Positions 1 through 31,929 of a stretch of DNA of 32,000 nucleotides are shown piece after piece. A program made the translations under genes and the position numbers. Each line of letters opens with the position of its first letter. Positions within the stretch are counted from its first letter, which is position 1. A model generated the notes under the pieces. The model was given only the letters and a program-made list of their open reading frames with translations, was not told where the DNA came from and did not search any database. Origin of the DNA: Candidatus Saccharimonadota bacterium (lineage in GTDB: Bacteria; Pseudomonadota; Gammaproteobacteria; Enterobacterales; Enterobacteriaceae); contig NZ_OZ060402.1 in assembly GCF_964059045.1 (NCBI RefSeq), positions 210,001 through 242,000 on the forward strand, in the 5' to 3' direction.

Positions 1-770
1 GAATGACGTTATGTAATATGGCTATTGAAATGGGTGCTAAATCAGCGATTATTGCACCAGACAATATAACATATAGTTATTTAAAAAATAAATTTTATTC
101 TCCTAAAGGAGATCACTGGCAGAAAGCATTAAATTTCTGGAAAACATTAAAGTCAGACAATAATGCTATTTTTGATAAAACTATTGTCATTAATGTTACT
201 AATATAGAACCTCAAGTAACGTGGGGGACTAATCCTGGACAAGTTAGTGCTATCAGTCACAATATACCTATGATAAATACTTTTTCTAATCCAATTGAAA
301 GGGAATCTGCTAAAAATGCTATTTCTTACATGCAGTTACAACCTGGAATTAAATTAACAGATATTTATATAGATAAAGTTTTTATAGGTTCCTGTACTAA
401 TTCTAGAATTGAAGATTTAAGATTAGCTGCTTCAATATTAAACAATAGACGAATAGATAAAAATATACAAGCTATTGTTGTTCCTGGATCTAAAAGTGTT
501 AAAATACAAGCTGAAAAAGAAGGTTTAGATAAAATTTTTATTAATTCTGGTTTTGAATGGAGACTACCAGGTTGCTCAATGTGTTTAGGTATGAATAATG
601 ATAGACTTTTACCTGGTGAAAGGTGCGCTTCAACAAGTAATAGAAATTTTGAAGGACGTCAAGGTAGAGGTGGTTTGACCCATTTAGTTAGTCCATCTAT
701 GGCTGCAGCAGCAGCTATTTTTGGTAGATTTGTTGATATTAGACAATTAAATTCAAGAGATAAAAATTAA
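1..770 (+). CDS. leuC: 3-isopropylmalate dehydratase large subunit (C-terminal part; the 5' end lies outside the window, reading frame starts at base 3)
   Basis: The ORF is open from the window edge. Its translation carries the LeuC/aconitase-family C-terminal motifs [24 protein letters not shown] and [14 protein letters not shown]. leuD follows 4 bp later. Confidence 0.95.
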
Positions 771-774
771 TTTT

Positions 775-1380
775 ATGGATAAATTTGAAGAACATACTGG
801 TATTATAGCACCTTTAGATATTTCTAATATTGATACTGATGCTATTATTCCAAAACAATTTTTACAAAAAGTTACACGGGAAGGCTTTGGTCAATATTTG
901 TTTCATGATTGGAGGTTCTTAGATACTCAAAGAAAAAAAGAAAATTGTAATTTTATATTAAATCAATCGCCTTATCGTTGTGCTAATGTTTTGTTATCAC
1001 GTAATAATTTTGGTTGTGGTTCTTCTAGAGAACATGCTGTTTGGGCCCTCATGGATTATGGTATTAAATTAATTATTGCCTCTAGTTTTGCAGATATATT
1101 TTATAATAATAGTTTTAATAATCATTTATTATTAATTACTTTAACAGAAGAAGAAATTGATAAAATTTTTTTAGTAGTAAAAAAAATTATAGGTATTAAA
1201 TGTTATGTAAATTTAGTTAAAAGTACAATTGAAATTAATAATCAATTATATAAATTTTTTATACCTGATTTTTATCGTGTTTGTTTATTAAATGGATTAG
1301 ATAATGTTGATTTAACTATGCAACATGAATCTTTAATTCAATGTTATGAACAGAAAATACCTATTTTTTTTCGTCATTAA
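775..1380 (+). CDS. leuD: 3-isopropylmalate dehydratase small subunit
   Basis: 201 aa, colinear with E. coli LeuD (HTGIIAPLD, NIDTDAIIPKQFLQKVTREGFG, NFGCGSSREHAVWAL, SFADIFYNNSFNN). Tightly coupled to leuC. Confidence 0.95.
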   Translation: MDKFEEHTGIIAPLDISNIDTDAIIPKQFLQKVTREGFGQYLFHDWRFLDTQRKKENCNFILNQSPYRCANVLLSRNNFGCGSSREHAVWALMDYGIKLIIASSFADIFYNNSFNNHLLLITLTEEEIDKIFLVVKKIIGIKCYVNLVKSTIEINNQLYKFFIPDFYRVCLLNGLDNVDLTMQHESLIQCYEQKIPIFFRH

Positions 1381-1640
1381 TAAATGTTTATGTTGTATCT
1401 TATTTTAAAATATTAATTAATATTGATATATAATATATACAACTATTTTTATATATACATAATTTTTTTGTAAAAGATATAATAAAATTTAATTAAATAA
1501 ATTGTTTTATTATTTATTTTATTTTTTTTAATAAGATAATTTATAAAAATATATTATATTATATAAACTATAATTTACTTATGAAATAAGCATTATTTAT
1601 TTATATTTCATAAACATGATTTGAATAATTTACATAGAAA

Positions 1641-1672
1641 TAGAGATTCAGTTCATAATATCTGAATCTCTA
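1641..1672. other. Perfect 11-bp stem / 10-nt loop hairpin in the leuD-leuA spacer (tagagattcag..ctgaatctcta)
   Basis: I checked complementarity base by base: 1641-1651 pairs with 1662-1672. It is the only G/C-containing structure in a 570-bp A/T spacer and is followed by acatatttt. It could be a leuD terminator or a leftover leader/attenuator; its function is unknown. Confidence 0.3.
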
Positions 1673-1956
1673 ACATATTTTGATATAAATTATATATTTT
1701 AATGTTTTATTATTGTTATAATTTAATTTTTACATATTTTTTATAATTACAATTATATATATTATCATTATATAATTATAAAAGCATATGTATACCTTGT
1801 TTGAATTCAATATTAATGTATTTGATGATCTATATTTGCAATAAATATTTTAATATATATTTATATATATAATATTTTTAATAAAAAGCATTTTTATCAA
1901 AAATAGTATATTATTTTTGGTTTTATTAAATTTATAAAATAACAGTAGGTATGAAC

Positions 1957-3498
1957 ATGAAAGAAAGAATTATAATTTTTGATACAACATTAAGAGATGG
2001 TGAACAAGCATTGCAATCTAGTTTAACTGTTTCACAAAAATTAGAGATAGCATTATCTTTAGAAAAAATGGGGGTTGATGTTATAGAAGTTGGTTTTCCT
2101 ATTTCTTCTCCTGGTGATTTTGAATCTGTAAAAAAAATTTCAAGTGTTATTAAAAATAGTCGAATCTGTAGCTTAGCTCGTTGTGTGGATCAAGATATTG
2201 ATGTTGCGGCTGAATCTATGAAAGATTCAGAAAAATTTAGAATTCATTTATTTTTAGGAACTTCTAAAATTCATGTTGAATCTAAATTAAGGAAGAATTT
2301 TAATGAAATAATAGATATGGCAGTACGTTCGATTATTAGGGCAAGTAAATATACTGATGATATTGAATTTTCGTGTGAAGATGCTGGAAGAACTTCTATT
2401 GATAATCTTTGTTTGATTGTTGAAAAAGTTATTAAAGCGGGAGCTACAACTATTAATATACCAGATACAGTTGGTTACACTATTCCAACAGAATTTAGTG
2501 AAATCATTCGGTTACTTGTATTAAAAGTACCCAATATTGATTCTGCTATAATTTCTGTTCATTGTCATAATGATTTGGGAATGGCTGTAGGTAATTCAAT
2601 TAGTGCTATTCAAAATGGAGCTCGTCAAGTTGAAGGCACTATTAATGGTATAGGAGAAAGAGCTGGCAATACGGCATTAGAAGAAGTAATTATGGCAATA
2701 AAGACTAAATCCGATGTTTTACAAAAATATACAAATATCAAAATAAATAAAATTTATGCTACTAGTAAAATAGTGAGTCAAATTTGTCAGATGCCAATTC
2801 CTGCAAACAAAGCGATAGTAGGTAGCAACGCTTTTTCACATTCTTCTGGTATTCATCAAGATGGTATGATAAAAAATAGAAATAATTATGAAATTATTTT
2901 CCCAGAAAGTATTGGTGCAAAAAATATATCACTAAATTTAACTTCACGATCTGGAAGAGCTGCTGTAAATTATAGAATGAAAGAAATGGGTTATAAAGTA
3001 TGTGACTATAGTATAGATCAATTATATAGTTCGTTTTTAAAATTAGCAGATCAAAAAGGTCAAGTATTTGATTATGATTTAGAAATATTAGCATTTGCAA
3101 ATGATAAGTATAAAAACTTAGATAATTTTTATCTTAAGTGTTTTACTATACAAAAGGATTATCAAGGGTGTTTTATTGTTTCAGTAATAATATCATGTGA
3201 TAATAAAGAAATTCAACAAACTTCAACTTCATATTATGGTCCAATAGATGCTATTTATTTAGCTTTAAATAAAATTGTTCAGTATCCAATTCAATTAAAA
3301 AAATTTGAATTATTATCTCAAGATTTAGGTGATAATTCTATTTCTCGAGTATCTATTATAGTAGAATATAATAATCGTGATTTTTATGGTTTAGGTATTG
3401 AAAAAGATTTTATTACATCTTCTGCTCAAGCTTTAATTAATGTATTTAATTATATATGGCGTTTAAAAACAATCTCGATAAAATTAAAAAATTTGTAA
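1957..3498 (+). CDS. leuA: 2-isopropylmalate synthase
   Basis: Colinear with E. coli LeuA throughout ([59 protein letters not shown], plus the C-terminal regulatory domain). The ORF track starts at ATG 1951. ATG 1957 matches the E. coli N-terminal length exactly and sits 6 nt after AGGT (1947-1950), so I prefer 1957. Confidence 0.95.
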
Positions 3499-7614: not shown

Positions 7615-7750
7615 AATTTTATTTTAATTTTAATATTATTTTTATATTTTTATATAAATATGATTTTGATAAAATACATTATTGCATTACATAATATTCG
7701 TATGTATAACATATATTATATATCATTTTTAATGGTTGGAATATAATACA

Positions 7751-8803
7751 ATGCGTATTGAAGAAGATATCAAATTAAGTTTTAAAGATGTTTTAATACG
7801 TCCTAAAAGATCAATTTTAAGAAGTAGATCTCAAGTTGAATTAAGTCGAAAATTTATTTTCAAACATTCATGTATTAGTTGGTCTGGTATACCTATTATA
7901 GCATCTAATATGGATACTGTTGGTACTTTTACAATGGTAAAAGTGTTGTCTAAATTTGAAATATTAACAGCTATTCATAAATATTATACTATTGATCAAT
8001 GGATTAATTTTATCCAATCAGTATCTGTACAAACTTTAAATTATATTATGGTCTCTACTGGTACATCTGATTCAGATTTTTCTAAAATTAAAGCAATTTT
8101 ATCATTATCAGATGAATTAAAATATATTTGTATTGATGTAGCTAATGGTTATTCAGAACATTTTGTATCTTTTTTAAAAAAAGCTAGAGATACTTTTCCA
8201 AATATTATTATTTGTGCAGGTAATGTTGTAACAGGAGAAATGGTTGAAGAATTAATATTAGCAGGTGCAGATATTGTAAAAGTTGGAATTGGTCCAGGAT
8301 CAGTATGTACAACAAGAAAAAAAACAGGTATTGGTTATCCTCAATTATCTGCAGTCATAGAGTGTGCTGATGCTGCACATGGTTTAGGTGGTAGGATAAT
8401 TAGTGATGGAGGTTGTATAGTACCAGGTGATTTGGCAAAATCTTTTGGTGGAGGAGCTGATTTTGTTATGTTAGGTGGAATGTTAGCTGGACATGAAGAG
8501 AGTGAAGGTTCGGTATTAGAGAAAAATGGAAAGAAATTTATGATATTTTATGGTATGAGTTCTGATATTGCTATGAAAAAATATATTGGTAGTATTGCAA
8601 AATATAGAACTTCGGAAGGTAAAATAGTTCTTTTACCTTTTCGAGGTAGTGTTGTTGATACTATTAAGGATATATTAGGTGGATTACGTTCATCTTGTAC
8701 TTATGTTGGAGCTGAATATTTAAAAGAATTAACTAAAAGAACTACTTTTATTCGTGTATCAGAACAAGAAAATTGTATTTTTAATCATCAAGAAATGATT
8801 TAA
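7751..8803 (+). CDS. guaC: GMP reductase
   Basis: Colinear with E. coli GuaC ([63 protein letters not shown]). The ORF track starts at TTG 7736. ATG 7751 reproduces the E. coli N-terminus MRIEED. Confidence 0.95.
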
Positions 8804-13333: not shown

Positions 13334-13475
13334 TTATATTGTATCGATAGTATCTATAAAATAATAAATATATATTATTTAATTGATTCAATATGTATTC
13401 AAATTATTTTTTATTTTTGATTGAAGATACTATCTTAATTTTTATTATCTGAAAAAATAAATTGAGATTGTGATT

Positions 13476-14897
13476 ATGAACAAAGAATTACATACACAGG
13501 TAGTAGTAATTGGAGCAGGTCCGGCAGGATATACAGCTGCATTCCGTTGTGCTGATTTAGGTTTAAATACGGTTTTAATCGAAAGATATAATACTTTAGG
13601 TGGAGTATGTCTTAATGTGGGTTGTATTCCATCTAAATATTTATTAAATATATCTCAAGTGATTAATAATTCAAAAAAATTATCTTTTCAAGGAGTTGAG
13701 TTTCAATTTCCTAAATTAGATTTATTGAAAATTAATTTTGAAAAAAATAAAATTATAGATGGTTTGACTAATAACTTAAAAATAATGTCTAAAAAAAGAA
13801 ATATTCAAATTATACATGGAAAAGCTGTTTTTAATGATAAAAATAGTATTTTCGTAAATGATAATAACGTAAAATATTTAATTTATTTTGACTATGCTAT
13901 TATTGCTACTGGTTCTAAATCTATAAAATTATCACAATTACCTAATGATGATTCCCGTATTTGGGATTCTACAAATGCATTAGAAATATCTATGATACCA
14001 AAACGGTTATTAATTGTTGGTGCTGGTATTATAGGATTAGAAATGGGTACTTTTTATAGTTCAATAGGTTCTAATGTAGATATTATTGATTCATGTGATA
14101 AATTACTACCGCTATTAGATCGTGATATTATTAACATTTTTGAAAAAAGTATTAAAAAACAATTTAATATAATTTTAAATAGAACAATTTTATCAGTAGA
14201 AAACAAAGTGAATGGAATTTTTGTCACTATGATTGACAAAAAAAATGTAACTCATACTATTTGTTATGATATTATATTAGTAGCTGTAGGAAGAAATCCT
14301 ATGACACATCATTTAAATCTTGAAAAAATAGGAATTGTATTAGATCAACGTGGTTTCATAAATGTAGATAATCAATTAAAAACAAATATTTCAAATATTT
14401 ATGCTGTAGGTGATGTAGTAGGTTTTCCTATGTTAGCACATAAAGGAATTTATCAAGCGTCTATTGCTGCAGAGGTTATTTCTGGTCAAAAACATTATTT
14501 TAATCCAAGAATAATTCCATCAATAGCATATACTTATCCTGAAATAGCTTGGGTAGGAATTTCTGAATTAGATGCTCAAAGATTAAAAATTGATTATCAT
14601 AGTGCAAATTTCCCTTGGAAGGCTTCTGGAAAAGCTTTAGCTTCTAATTGTTCAGATGGTATGACTAAATTAATTTTTGATAAAAATACTAATAGAATTA
14701 TAGGAGGTGCTGTTATTGGTGAGCATGCTGGAGAATTATTAGGTGAAATAGGATTAGCAATTGAAATGGCATGTGATGTAGAAGATATAGCTTTAACAAT
14801 ACATGCTCATCCTACTTTATATGAATCTATTGGTTTATCTGCTAAAATATTTTCAGGTACTATTACTGATCTTCTTAATCACAATAAAAATAAATAA
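13476..14897 (+). CDS. lpdA: Dihydrolipoyl dehydrogenase (E3)
   Basis: Colinear with E. coli Lpd (VVVIGAGPAGYTAAFRCADLGL, GGVCLNVGCIPSK, AHPTLYES). The ORF track starts at GTG 13470. ATG 13476 gives the E. coli-length N-terminus. Confidence 0.95.
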   Translation: MNKELHTQVVVIGAGPAGYTAAFRCADLGLNTVLIERYNTLGGVCLNVGCIPSKYLLNISQVINNSKKLSFQGVEFQFPKLDLLKINFEKNKIIDGLTNNLKIMSKKRNIQIIHGKAVFNDKNSIFVNDNNVKYLIYFDYAIIATGSKSIKLSQLPNDDSRIWDSTNALEISMIPKRLLIVGAGIIGLEMGTFYSSIGSNVDIIDSCDKLLPLLDRDIINIFEKSIKKQFNIILNRTILSVENKVNGIFVTMIDKKNVTHTICYDIILVAVGRNPMTHHLNLEKIGIVLDQRGFINVDNQLKTNISNIYAVGDVVGFPMLAHKGIYQASIAAEVISGQKHYFNPRIIPSIAYTYPEIAWVGISELDAQRLKIDYHSANFPWKASGKALASNCSDGMTKLIFDKNTNRIIGGAVIGEHAGELLGEIGLAIEMACDVEDIALTIHAHPTLYESIGLSAKIFSGTITDLLNHNKNK

Positions 14898-14954
14898 ATC
14901 TTTTTGATATCAGATATAATAGAGTATTAAAAATATTAATTTATCTGCTTGATA

Positions 14955-14988
14955 TAAGATTATGCAGGTTTAGTACTGCATGATCTTA
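14955..14988 (+). terminator. Probable lpdA terminator hairpin
   Basis: taagattatgcag / ctgcatgatctta forms a 13-bp stem with one T:G position (a wobble pair in RNA) and an 8-nt loop gtttagta. It lies about 58 bp after the lpdA stop and contains G:C pairs in an A/T background. Confidence 0.45.
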
Positions 14989-15082
14989 GTAAATAAGTAA
15001 TATTGATTTAAATTATAATTATATATATAAAATGATTTTTTTATATTTTAATTAGATGGTTTTAAATAGATATATTATATTT

Positions 15083-15207
15083 ATAATAAAAAACATATCA
15101 TATAAAAAAATTTATCTTGGTATTCATAATGTTGAATAAAAATAATATTTTTATTCAACATTATGAATACCAAGATAAATTTTTTTATATGATATGTTTT
15201 TTATTAT
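15083..15207. repeat. 125-bp perfect palindrome (62-nt arms around a single central base at 15145)
   Basis: I verified pair by pair that 15145-k is complementary to 15145+k for k=1..62 with no mismatch. The match breaks at k=63 (T/T). Each arm includes 8 G/C positions. It lies between convergent lpdA and mtnN. Confidence 0.95.
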
Positions 15208-15268
15208 TGTTGTCTTGTACATTTTTATTTGCAAATAATATTTATATTTATATTAATAATTTTAAATA

Positions 15269-15985
15269 TTATGAATTTAAAATATGATTGTTTTGATTTA
15301 AGTATATAAGTATGTATTCAAGTATATTGAAATTATTTTTGCTAGAAAGAGTAATATATTTTTTAAAATTCATATATCCTGTTTTATTTGCATAATCAGA
15401 AATAGATCGAATAATTAAAAATGGAATATTAAATTTATAACATACATGTGCTATAGCAGCACTTTCCATTTCTACTGCAATAGCTGTTGGAAAATTTTTT
15501 TTGATAGTTTTTATTATTATTTGATTATTAACAAAAATATCACCAGTAACTAAATCACCTTCCATATACTGAAAATAATTTTTGATAATATTTTTTTTAT
15601 AAATTTTTAATAATTTATCATTTGCAGTAAAAAATTGAGGACAACCGGGTATTTGCCCTATTTTGTAATTAAAATCAATTAGATTTACATCATAGTAACT
15701 AATTAAATTAGGTATGATAAGATCACCTGGTTTAAGTAAATTATGAATACTTCCTGCTGATCCAATATTAATAATAATATTTGGTTTATATAACAAAATT
15801 AGTAAAGTAGTTGCAATACTAGCAGATACTTTTCCTATTCCAGTCTGTAAAACAATAATTTTAATTTTATGGTAATATCCAATATGAAATAAATATGAAT
15901 GATATATTTCTTTAGTTTTGTTATTAATTTTATTAACTAATAATAAGATTTCATCTTGAATTGCACCAACAATGCCAACGATCAT
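15269..15985 (-). CDS. mtnN: 5'-methylthioadenosine/S-adenosylhomocysteine nucleosidase
   Basis: 238 aa, colinear with E. coli Pfs/MtnN (MIVGIVGAIQDE, TGIGKVSASIATTLL, INIGSAGS, AVEMESAAIAHVC, IRSISD). Confidence 0.9.
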   Translation of the reverse strand: MIVGIVGAIQDEILLLVNKINNKTKEIYHSYLFHIGYYHKIKIIVLQTGIGKVSASIATTLLILLYKPNIIINIGSAGSIHNLLKPGDLIIPNLISYYDVNLIDFNYKIGQIPGCPQFFTANDKLLKIYKKNIIKNYFQYMEGDLVTGDIFVNNQIIIKTIKKNFPTAIAVEMESAAIAHVCYKFNIPFLIIRSISDYANKTGYMNFKKYITLSSKNNFNILEYILIYLNQNNHILNS

Positions 15986-19029: not shown

Positions 19030-19659
19030 TTTTATCCTGTTTCTTATTTATAATGATTGTATTAATTAAATTAATTAAATAAATGATATTATTATTAATA
19101 ATTATCATTCACAGTTAATATAGAATCAAGATTGTTAATATTTATTTTATATTTTTTGATGATTAATGTAATATTGAAGTATTAAAAGAAATGTTCATTT
19201 TTTTATATTTTTATTTATAATGTAAAATAGATATAAATTTTATTTATTTTGTTTAAATTATCAGATTAATATAATAAAATTTTTAAAAATATTTTTGCTA
19301 AAAAATTATTGAATGAAAATTATTTATTTGTATTATGATCATTTTAATGAAAAAAATAATTTTTTATGAATTAATGTTTTGATATCATAATTAATATTTT
19401 TTTCAATTATATTTTTTTTAAAATGGATTTTTTAAGCATTGATTATAATTTTTAATTATGAATATGAAATAAAAAATAATTATAATCAATAAAAATATTA
19501 AAAATATTTCATACTGGATATATATAAATATATTTTTTATATTATATCATATATTATATTTATATTCTAAAATAGTTTGAAAATAAATAATTTATTATAT
19601 CGAACATTTTGATCATTTCATATTTTTAAATATTTTTTTTAAAAAAATATTTTTTTATA

Positions 19660-23298: not shown

Positions 23299-24328
23299 CT
23301 ATAACAAAAATTTTTTAAATTCAGGAGAATACCATATTGAAAAGTATTTTTTTTCCTTTTTAATTAAACAAACAGATAATTTCTCAAAAATAGCTATTTT
23401 TTTTGCTTCTTTAAAACCTAATATCATTAAAGCTGTATCCCAAGCATCGGCTTCTAGTGCAGAATTAGATATTATACTTACAGATAGTAAACTATTGTTT
23501 ATTGGTTTTCCAGTAACAGGATTAATCAGATGAGATATTTTTTTATTATTTAATTTGTAGTAATTATGATAGACACCTGAAGTGCTAATAGATTTTCCGT
23601 TTAAATTAACTATAGTGTTAATAGTATTTTCTTTTTCGAATGGAGATAATATTCCTACAGGAATAATTTTATTTTTATCTATTGAATGGCTGATAACTAC
23701 TCCTCCAATAGAAATAATATAGTTTTTAATTTTATAATTTTTGAGAATTTTTTTTATTTCTTCTGCAGCAAATCCTTCTCCCATTGTAGATAAATTAATT
23801 TTAATTTGTGATATATTTTTTGTAATATACGTTCCGGATATATTTTGAATTAATTGAATATTTTGTATTCCTGTTTTTTGAATAGTATTTTTAATTTTTT
23901 CTATTGAAGGATAATGTAGTATCTTATTTCCAGGACCAAACCCCCACATATTTATTAAATTTCCTATAGTAATATCTAATGCACCATGAGTTTTTTTCCC
24001 TATACACAGTCCTGTAAGAATTATTTTTTTTAAATTTTGATCGATTAATTTTGGTTGATTAGCTTTATATTGATTAAAAATAGATACAAATGATTTTTTA
24101 TTCCAAGATGAAATTTGTTTTTCATAAATATTTAGCTTATGAGTAATATTTTTTTTTATAATGTTGATTTTTTTTTTTAGTTTCGATTTCTGGAATTGTA
24201 ATTTTCCAATATGTACCCATTGTTTTACCTTGTATGGTCTGATATTTTTGTTTTATTTGGCATATATGAAGATTATATATTATGCAAAAAATATAAAATA
24301 ATAAGTTTAAATTAATTGTTGTTAACAT
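23299..24328 (-). pseudogene. apbE: FAD:protein FMN transferase (ApbE) interrupted by a single +1 frameshift in an A11 tract
   Basis: I translated the minus strand by hand. Frame A runs from ATG 24328 and encodes a signal-peptide-like N-terminus plus QGKTMGTYWKITIPEIE (E. coli EGKTMGTFWRASIPGID). It stops at 24137 after an A11 run (T11 on the + strand, 24168-24178). Frame B is open from before that run to 23299 and continues the alignment (SSWNKKSF, GALDITIGNLINMWGFGP, STMGEGFAAE, ISTSGVYHNYY, ALEADAWDTALM). The span is 1030 nt, which is 343 codons plus 1 nt. Removing one A from the run gives one continuous 342-aa ApbE. Confidence 0.85.
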
Positions 24329-24491
24329 GTATTGTTCACCATGGTTTTTATTAATACTAAATAGTATCTGTATTATATTTATGTAATAGAATAAATTATT
24401 AAAAATTAGAATATTATTTTGCAATATATTATAGATTATTACAGTTTTTACTTTTTAAAATATTATTCAATTATTTCATTTTTATTGGTTG

Positions 24492-24545
24492 TATATTTTT
24501 TAAAATAGATTTTTATTTTTCATAAAAACTATTTTAAAAAATATA
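24492..24545. repeat. Long A/T hairpin in the apbE-degP divergent spacer (17 bp perfect + 1-nt bulge + 7 bp, loop ttttc)
   Basis: 24492-24508 is exactly complementary to 24529-24545. After bulged A24509, 24510-24516 pairs with 24522-24528. The loop is 24517-24521. Confidence 0.5.
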
Positions 24546-24894
24546 TTTATGTTTAATTTTTTTAAAAATTGGAATTAATTTAATTATTTTTAATATAAAT
24601 ATTATTATATATAATGTTTATAATATTTAAAAAATTATTTTAAATTAATATTTATTAATTTATTTTAATAAAAAAAAATGTTTTTATTTCATTTTATTTT
24701 GTATTAATAATATTATTATATTTTATTAAAAAATTAGTTTTTTAATTATAAATACGATTTTTAACATAATTAATAGGATTATATAGAATATTCAGCAACT
24801 AAATAGGCTAATACAGTATATATTATTTTTTTATTGTATACTATTGTTCCAAATCTTACTTTTTTGGAATATATTGTAATTTGAGAATAGAATA

Positions 24895-31868: not shown

Positions 31869-31929
31869 TAAATATATACAATATTTTTAAAAAATTTTTT
31901 CAATTTTTTAAAAATATTGTATATATTTA
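31869..31929. repeat. 61-nt perfect hairpin (28-bp stem, 5-nt loop ttttc) downstream of frr
   Basis: I verified pair by pair that 31869-31896 is complementary to 31902-31929 with no mismatch. The loop is 31897-31901. There is one G:C pair; the rest are A:T. It lies about 200 bp after the frr stop. Confidence 0.9.

Follow-up and report, generated by a model that had tools for sequence, protein, structure and literature searches.

A perfect palindrome lies between the convergent genes lpdA and mtnN of an insect endosymbiont, and its structure, its setting and its probable origin are considered here. The DNA analysed, called the window below, is a stretch of 32,000 nucleotides (RefSeq assembly GCF_964059045.1, contig NZ_OZ060402.1, positions 210,001 to 242,000 of the forward strand) deposited under the name Candidatus Saccharimonadota bacterium. 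It comes from Buchnera aphidicola of the aphid Eriosoma grossulariae: MtnN and Frr of the window match database entries of this symbiont with 100% identity. The gene order around the spacer in question is aceE-aceF-lpdA and then mtnN-erpA-ftsZ-ftsA. The dihydrolipoyl dehydrogenase gene lpdA (13470..14897, plus strand) and the methylthioadenosine/S-adenosylhomocysteine (MTA/SAH) nucleosidase gene mtnN (15269..15985, minus strand), both assigned by NCBIfam, converge on a spacer of 371 bp with 14% G+C (14898..15268). The palindrome occupies positions 15083-15207 of this spacer, 185 nt downstream of the lpdA stop codon and with its right arm 61 nt from the stop codon of mtnN, and its setting is the intergenic DNA of a reduced, AT-rich genome of an obligate insect symbiont (606,948-bp contig).

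Structure of the palindrome

The left arm (15083-15144) and the right arm (15146-15207) are 62 nt each and 100% complementary across a gap of 1 nt, as established by repeat search and by a base-by-base check. The left arm (A33 T21 C4 G4) contains an A6 run at 15088-15093 and an A7 run at 15104-15110, and the right arm, its exact reverse complement, carries the corresponding T7 (15180-15186) and T6 (15197-15202). The original prediction, made from the sequence alone, had described arms of 62 nt without a mismatch and with eight G/C positions each at these coordinates, all of which was reproduced independently. It had also described the 125 bases as identical when read on either strand, which is so for 124 of the 125; the central base, a lone unpaired A on the symmetry axis (15145), cannot be complementary to itself. 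In the predicted folds the innermost pair opens as well, giving a loop of 3 nt. Beyond the arms complementarity drops to chance level (20/40).

The palindrome is a real sequence and not a product of chance, as had been predicted. At the composition of the spacer the probability of pairing, 2(pA*pT+pG*pC), is about 0.375 per position, which puts 62 successive pairs at ~1e-26, and when 200 random 32-kb sequences were drawn with this composition, their longest perfect stems (loops up to 10 allowed) measured 12-18 nt. When the whole spacer is folded as RNA, the full palindrome stem is predicted on both strands (z = -14.1 and -14.9), and the stem folded as single-stranded DNA reaches -58.2 kcal/mol (z = -19.5).

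The spacer in related Buchnera

The orthologous locus was compared in eight other Buchnera, namely those of E. lanigerum (L006), E. harunire (L007), Meitanaphis (L008), Kurisakia (L009) and A. pisum (L015; CP002302.1), together with L010, L011 (OZ060413.1) and L014 (CP186013.1). In less reduced Buchnera and in Escherichia coli the genes speD and speE were expected to lie between lpdA and mtnN, and this is what is seen: speE and speD are intact between mtnN and lpdA in the E. harunire and A. pisum symbionts, and in E. coli K-12 both genes are found between lpd and mtn, among ~40 others. The symbiont of E. lanigerum, the closest available relative (MtnN identity 62%), has between mtnN and lpdA a stretch of 1124 bp with no called gene (L006 6694-7817), an unannotated speED relic in which residues 3-39 of the SpeD N-terminus are still recognizable at spacer positions 414-524 (tblastn E = 2.8e-5, equalled in 3/200 shuffles). 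This relic represents an intermediate step between E. harunire, with its intact genes, and E. grossulariae, in which the 371-bp spacer is what is left of the speED region. In L008, L009, L010, L011 and L014 the two genes are directly convergent, with spacers of 5-275 bp. In the Kurisakia symbiont, with a 509-kb genome, the mtnN and lpdA stops are only 5 bp apart (L009 5694-5698), leaving no room for an intergenic hairpin.

Coding remnants were sought in the eroded spacer of the window, the E. lanigerum relic serving as positive control, and candidate fragments were rejected for both genes since 165/200 (SpeD) and 146/200 (SpeE) shuffles scored as well or better. Both palindrome arms give a weak tblastn match to SpeD residues 6-25, part of the piece kept in E. 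lanigerum, and shuffles reject this match too (147/500 with the N-terminal 45 residues alone).

A second, much shorter hairpin lies nearer to lpdA. It spans 14955..14988 on the plus strand, with 13 pairs and a loop of 8 nt, and is found at the same place in all other lineages tested (L006 ~7725-7760; L007 ~8710-8742; L011 5849-5945; L014 5853-5947; L015 6733-6805). Six Buchnera lineages share its core, AAGATT(A/G)T ... A(T/C)AATCTT, without change except at two variable positions, where pairing is preserved, and in the window this core occupies 14956-14987, outside the palindrome. The hairpin measures 13 bp in the Eriosoma symbionts, whereas in A. pisum it has 36-nt arms with 5/36 mismatches followed by T8, and is a canonical intrinsic terminator. 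The palindrome and this ancestral lpdA 3' hairpin are separate elements, and the palindrome is, as had been expected, not the lpdA terminator.

In two lineages the same core has become the centre of a long palindrome. That of L011 has 47-nt arms with 2/47 mismatches and a 3-nt loop; its ortholog in L014, a genome of another species from another submitter whose MtnN is 66% identical to that of L011, has 46-nt arms that are 93% complementary (3/46 mismatches). The two agree at 34/41 core pairs, six pairs have changed on both sides and are still Watson-Crick pairs, one is a wobble and one is broken; three of the six double-sided changes have no wobble intermediate (AT to CG once, AT to TA twice). 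Neutral sites are saturated over the same distance, identity being 28-56% at four-fold sites and 40% in the rest of the spacer, where chance alone would give 38%. Since compensatory changes have kept the pairs while neutral sites saturated, the long hairpin of L011 and L014 is, judged by sequence comparison, old and constrained. Long A/T-rich hairpins are thus genuine features of Buchnera genomes that are able to arise by extension of a short one.

The palindrome of the window has no counterpart of this kind among its nearest relatives. No comparable inverted repeat occurs in the lpdA-mtnN spacers of E. lanigerum or E. harunire, the spacers of L011 and L014 show no similarity to the arm, and a search with the arm against the spacers of six relatives returned no nucleotide homolog (150/300 shuffles did as well against L006, compared with 0/300 for the conserved hairpin as control). 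A marginal similarity to the L010 spacer, equalled in 4/300 shuffles, was set aside after allowing for six tests. Outside the conserved hairpin the spacers of the relatives cannot be aligned with that of the window. An alignment of related spacers had been proposed as a way of recognizing one arm as ancestral; neither arm aligns to any relative. Nor is there a second copy in the window (with up to 3 mismatches allowed there), in the metagenomes of the Joint Genome Institute (JGI) or in IMG/VR.

Several other identities were considered and rejected. A mobile or repeated element (repetitive extragenic palindromic sequences and bacterial interspersed mosaic elements, miniature inverted-repeat transposable elements or insertion-sequence ends) should have left dispersed copies, and there are none in the window or in the metagenome and viral collections; the flanks, TATTT and TGTTG, do not form a direct repeat. 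The sole Rfam match is to a plant microRNA-precursor model, which scores 27 bits where the gathering threshold is 139.7. A small open reading frame at 15117-15287 (56 aa, TTG start) has no family match and overlaps mtnN in antisense, and was treated as spurious. Promoter-like matches in the region are fewer than in shuffled sequences (7 versus 10.8). A replication terminus or dif site finds no support either: in E. lanigerum the orthologous locus, at ~225-237 kb of 627 kb, is not located opposite the origin, and the skew does not switch at the palindrome.

Origin and age of the palindrome

Taken together, the structure, the position in a gene-loss spacer, the absence from relatives and the separateness from the conserved lpdA hairpin are best accounted for, at a probability of roughly one half, by a real, young and lineage-specific inverted duplication that arose by template switching or fold-back copying in unconstrained AT-rich relic DNA. 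The speED relic, with its 14% G+C, is rich in short chance palindromes that would be able to act as seeds, and the present centre, AAAAATA-A-TATTTTT, could be one of them. At such a seed the nascent strand would fold back during replication, or switch to the complementary strand, copy ~55-62 nt of adjacent sequence as reverse complement and then return to the original template, so that one event would suffice for a perfect hairpin-forming repeat. The arms are adjacent and 100% complementary, which matches the trait of a template-switch product, a reverse complement beside its template. The product would be tolerated in a spacer without coding constraint, all the more so in a genome with few means of attacking it: RecA is reported absent, and Buchnera in general is not known to carry the SbcCD hairpin nuclease. 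Transcription from either side would give a 62-bp RNA hairpin 61 nt past the mtnN stop, and the palindrome may add a further barrier to transcription or serve as a 3' structure of the RNA, as a side effect and not as the reason for its existence.

Several elements of this account have precedents in the literature. Template switching makes perfect hairpins in one step and both creates and repairs stems in bacteria (PMC8794818; PMC5453318). RecA is absent from Buchnera and Blochmannia, Buchnera being reported to lack nearly all proteins of homologous recombination (PMC1193525), and the loss of SbcCD in symbionts has been discussed (PMC4948707). The persistence of so long a perfect palindrome had been called notable, if real, in the original prediction, a view weakened by the palindromes of Blochmannia, by the lack of RecA in Buchnera and by the hairpins with 46-47-nt arms in the orthologous spacer of two lineages. 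Among the four explanations offered there, a recent inverted duplication fits best, although the intrastrand conversion invoked with it is superfluous for a young element.

The inference of youth comes from the perfection of the arms. The long hairpins of the orthologous spacer that are demonstrably old carry 2/47, 3/46 and 5/36 mismatches (4-7% for L011 and L014), compared with 0/62 in the window, and with mismatches at a level of 5%, a run of 62 clean pairs has a probability of ~4%. Most simply, then, the palindrome is young. With Buchnera substitution rates taken as about 1e-8 to 1e-7 per site per year, assumed values for which no published figure was found in the papers searched, a first hit in the 124 paired bases would be expected within roughly 0.1-1 million years. 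Insertions and deletions in the A5-A7 runs would shorten the time to the first hit, and the species divergences considered here are far older.

A hairpin census extended the comparison to 117 kb of Buchnera DNA, a small sample made up of the window and the eight loci, with block-shuffled sequence as null. Five hairpins rose above the null, with arm lengths and mismatches of 62/0, 44/1, 28/0, 22/0 and 22/1. The window holds a second perfect hairpin at 31869-31929, with 28-nt arms of almost pure A/T and a 5-nt loop, 198 nt past frr; the frr-bamA interval of E. lanigerum and E. harunire comprises 1.3-1.7 kb with no called gene, which makes it likewise a gene-loss spacer, and the hairpin is not conserved in either species. 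This second perfect hairpin and the growth of the 13-bp hairpin to arms of 46-47 nt in L011 and L014 count in favour of a general process. At 24492-24545 the window has a nearly perfect hairpin above the shuffled background, with 22-nt arms and one mismatch, and between ftsZ and erpA of E. harunire (L007 5401-5461) there is a perfect one, also above background, with 22-nt arms and a 17-nt loop.

A number of points weigh against a young template-switch product. Birth followed by neutral decay predicts some partly decayed long hairpins, and the 117-kb census contains none, which suggests fast loss of palindromes or homogenization of their arms. With the nearest relative at 62% MtnN identity and the spacers saturated, the donor arm, the switch points and the ancestral state are not recoverable, and the palindrome-bearing genome is represented by a single assembly. 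Constrained long hairpins in the orthologous spacer of two other lineages raise the prior probability that such an element is useful. The absence of SbcCD and RecA in the E. grossulariae symbiont is extrapolated from Buchnera generally. Finally, the 62-nt arm exceeds the events detected in the template-switch papers, in which the search minimum for the copied fragment was 10 bp.

Usefulness is the basis of the alternative that survives best, which we regard as possible though improbable: born by a copying accident, the palindrome would now be kept by selection as a terminator, an insulator or an RNA 3'-end hairpin for mtnN and as a back-up for lpdA. After the loss of speED, transcripts of mtnN could enter lpdA in antisense, and a hairpin placed between the two convergent genes, past the stop codons of both, would stop or process transcripts in both directions. 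A terminator role, another of the options in the original prediction, is possible on the predicted structures, in which transcripts of both strands form the full hairpin. Within it, a 34-bp inner sub-stem (15111..15179) is bordered by the A7 run on the left and directly by the T7 run on the right, so that either strand would read as a hairpin plus U7, a putative terminator-like sub-architecture. The form nevertheless departs from that of a canonical terminator, the stem being 62 bp with eight G/C pairs and the T7 of the inner stem being paired with A7 in the predicted fold; the mtnN-strand flank past the full stem, AAATATAA, is A-rich and not U-rich, and a consensus terminator scan lists nothing at the palindrome, the inner sub-stem included.

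The comparative evidence on selection is similarly divided. The conserved hairpin of L011 and L014, with its six compensatory pair changes on a background of saturated neutral sites, and the T8 tail of the A. pisum lpdA hairpin speak for function, as does the presence of a long palindrome in the spacer of 2 of ~6 independent speED-less lineages examined; the authors of the Blochmannia study, moreover, argued that spacer palindromes would decay without selection (PMC3017870). Against this, there is no such element in the speED-less symbiont of E. lanigerum or in those of Meitanaphis and Kurisakia and L010, the other convergent pairs of the window (secA/coaE and degP/dapD) have no long hairpin, and the window retains the conserved 13-bp hairpin, which could work for both genes, as in relatives. 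Mismatches occur in the hairpins that are under true constraint, and selection in Buchnera is probably too weak, in the face of drift, to hold all 62 pairs perfect.

A broader reading would join both kinds of hairpin into one process, in which long A/T hairpins of Buchnera are created, lengthened and kept paired by ongoing hairpin-templated copying and are recruited as terminators or insulators as G+C erodes; the palindrome of the window would have just joined this class on the mtnN side, and L011 and L014 would carry old members of it, whose six double-sided changes come from copying and not from stepwise compensation. We consider this unlikely as a whole. The double-sided changes between L011 and L014 hint at arm-to-arm copying, the evidence being from one species pair.

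Copying between arms could also mean that the palindrome is older than it looks, continual homogenization having given it a perfection that reflects concerted evolution and not youth, which we think quite unlikely. Six of the eight differing stem pairs between L011 and L014 changed on both sides, half of them with no wobble intermediate, as copying predicts; none of the five above-background hairpins of the census has more than one mismatch, decayed intermediates being missing, and template switching has been proposed to maintain stems (PMC8794818). Yet the old hairpins still hold 2-5 mismatches each, so that homogenization would be slow or incomplete if it occurs at all, the palindrome has no counterpart in the closest relatives, and survivorship, that is, the deletion of long palindromes before point mutations reach them, explains a census of this small size equally well.

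The original prediction placed the palindrome at a deletion junction. It does lie within the fully eroded spacer left by speED, but no evidence links its origin to the deletion, and that it is a scar of the event that removed speED, left by repair of a hairpin-capped break or by a template switch joining the end-points, is very unlikely in our judgement. The spacer has indeed shrunk to 371 bp from ~2 kb (as in E. harunire) or 1.1 kb (as in E. lanigerum), and one template switch is able to produce a deletion and an inversion together (PMC5453318). The inactivation of the genes is, however, much older, no SpeD or SpeE signal being left while the arms are flawless; neither junction microhomology nor ancestral sequence is identifiable, and five other speED-less lineages reached spacers of 5-275 bp with no palindrome of such origin.

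Least probable of all is a chimera of assembly, amplification or library preparation in a genome that is truly single-armed: the palindrome is known from one assembly, with no independent contig encoding an identical MtnN, and palindromes are known to interfere with assembly and with Sanger sequencing (PMC3017870), but fold-back chimeras would keep running backwards, whereas here unique flanks lead into lpdA and mtnN and two artefactual junctions would be needed, the L011 palindrome is matched by a diverged ortholog in the independently assembled L014 genome of another species, and the Blochmannia palindromes were confirmed by sizing of polymerase chain reaction (PCR) products and by reads (PMC3017870).

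Wider context and comparison with known systems

Three further observations concern other parts of the window. The ftsA-rsmH spacer (19030-19659) extends over 630 bp with no open reading frame of at least 90 aa; on this side of ftsA other Buchnera have genes for the cell wall and division, murC-ddlB-ftsQ adjoining ftsA in Meitanaphis (L008) and murC plus ddlB fragments being present in L014, and the rsmH-ftsA gap is gene-free in the three Eriosoma symbionts, Kurisakia and L010. At 3-3498 the window carries chromosomal leu genes in an unusual order, the 3' part of leuC and leuD being followed after a 570-bp gap by leuA on the same strand and then by secA. In the usual operon the order is leuA-B-C-D, and in many Buchnera the leucine genes are found on a plasmid. 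An apbE-like open reading frame of 216 aa (23299-23949, minus strand) covers positions 131-346 of the 351 in the family profile and looks N-terminally truncated or eroding, and the adjoining stretch (23950-24894) has no open reading frame with a family match.

If real, the palindrome is a natural case of a one-step mutation that made a long perfect hairpin and was caught before decay, in a genome thought to be nearly free of recombination. Alongside the extended lpdA hairpins, it suggests that the spacers of symbionts are continuously subject to inverted duplication and arm extension, which could furnish material for new terminators or RNA structures during gene loss. There is also a practical warning, as palindromes can break assemblies and Sanger reads and may themselves pass for artefacts. 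The palindrome alone overturns nothing; a catalogue of such elements in Blochmannia has existed since 2010, and the mutational mechanism is established.

Among known systems, bidirectional Rho-independent terminators resemble the palindrome in their position as a hairpin between convergent stops and in the A-tract and T-tract that bracket the inner stem, giving a U-run on both strands. They differ from it in being short and G+C-rich with an unpaired U-tail, whereas the palindrome has a 62-bp stem of 13% G+C in which U7 is paired with A7, and a conserved conventional hairpin already stands 95 nt away. The long versions of the Buchnera lpdA terminator share the orthologous spacer between lpdA and the gene convergent with it, the A/T-richness and arms of 36-47 nt, and they demonstrate that arm extension happens in Buchnera; they are, however, centred on the AAGATTAT...ATAATCTT core and are old, constrained and mismatched, while the palindrome is perfect, has no sequence in common with them and is centred 174 nt from the window's own copy of the core.

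Long palindromes in E. coli, described by Leach in 1994 and by later workers (work cited in PMC4948707), are reported to show SbcCD-dependent instability. The palindrome of the window belongs to the same class of SbcCD substrates, being perfect and capable of folding into a lagging-strand hairpin or of extruding as a cruciform. Instability in wild-type E. coli is severe above roughly 150-200 bp. By that threshold the 125 bp of the palindrome are near the tolerated range, and Buchnera, in distinction to E. coli, is reported to be without most recombination functions.

With template-switch mutations and quasipalindrome correction, as set out in the Ripley model and in genome-scale studies (Loytynoja and Goldman, 2017, PMC5453318; Monttinen and Loytynoja, 2022, PMC8794818), the palindrome has in common a one-step copy of the reverse complement beside its template that creates or extends a stem. 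The same model yields apparent multi-base compensatory changes like those between L011 and L014. The difference is one of scale and of evidence: those studies required a copied fragment of at least 10 bp, compared with the 62-nt arm here, and the palindrome is assigned to this class from its product only.

The closest parallel comes from Blochmannia, in which 6-20 near-perfect palindromes per genome have been catalogued, 62-136 bp in total length with up to 3 mismatches and a gap of up to 20 (Williams and Wernegreen, 2010, BMC Genomics 11:687; PMC3017870). All but two of them are at least partly intergenic, and they are obstacles to assembly and Sanger sequencing (PMC3017870). For Buchnera, the searchable literature yielded no comparable description. 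Judged by the limits of the Blochmannia type (arms no shorter than 30 nt, up to 3 mismatches and a gap no longer than 20 nt), the inverted repeat of the window falls within all three; its 125 bp lie inside the range of 62-136 bp, and its setting, a spacer in an AT-rich, reduced and RecA-less insect-symbiont genome, is the same. It differs in its host, a Buchnera, in being flawless around a centre of 1 nt, and in being linked to a gene-loss spacer and absent from sister species, links that were not made in the Blochmannia study (PMC3017870). The palindrome between lpdA and mtnN joins the kind catalogued there, and its flawless arms, its 1-nt centre and the dated gene-loss spacer in which it sits make it an unusually clean example.

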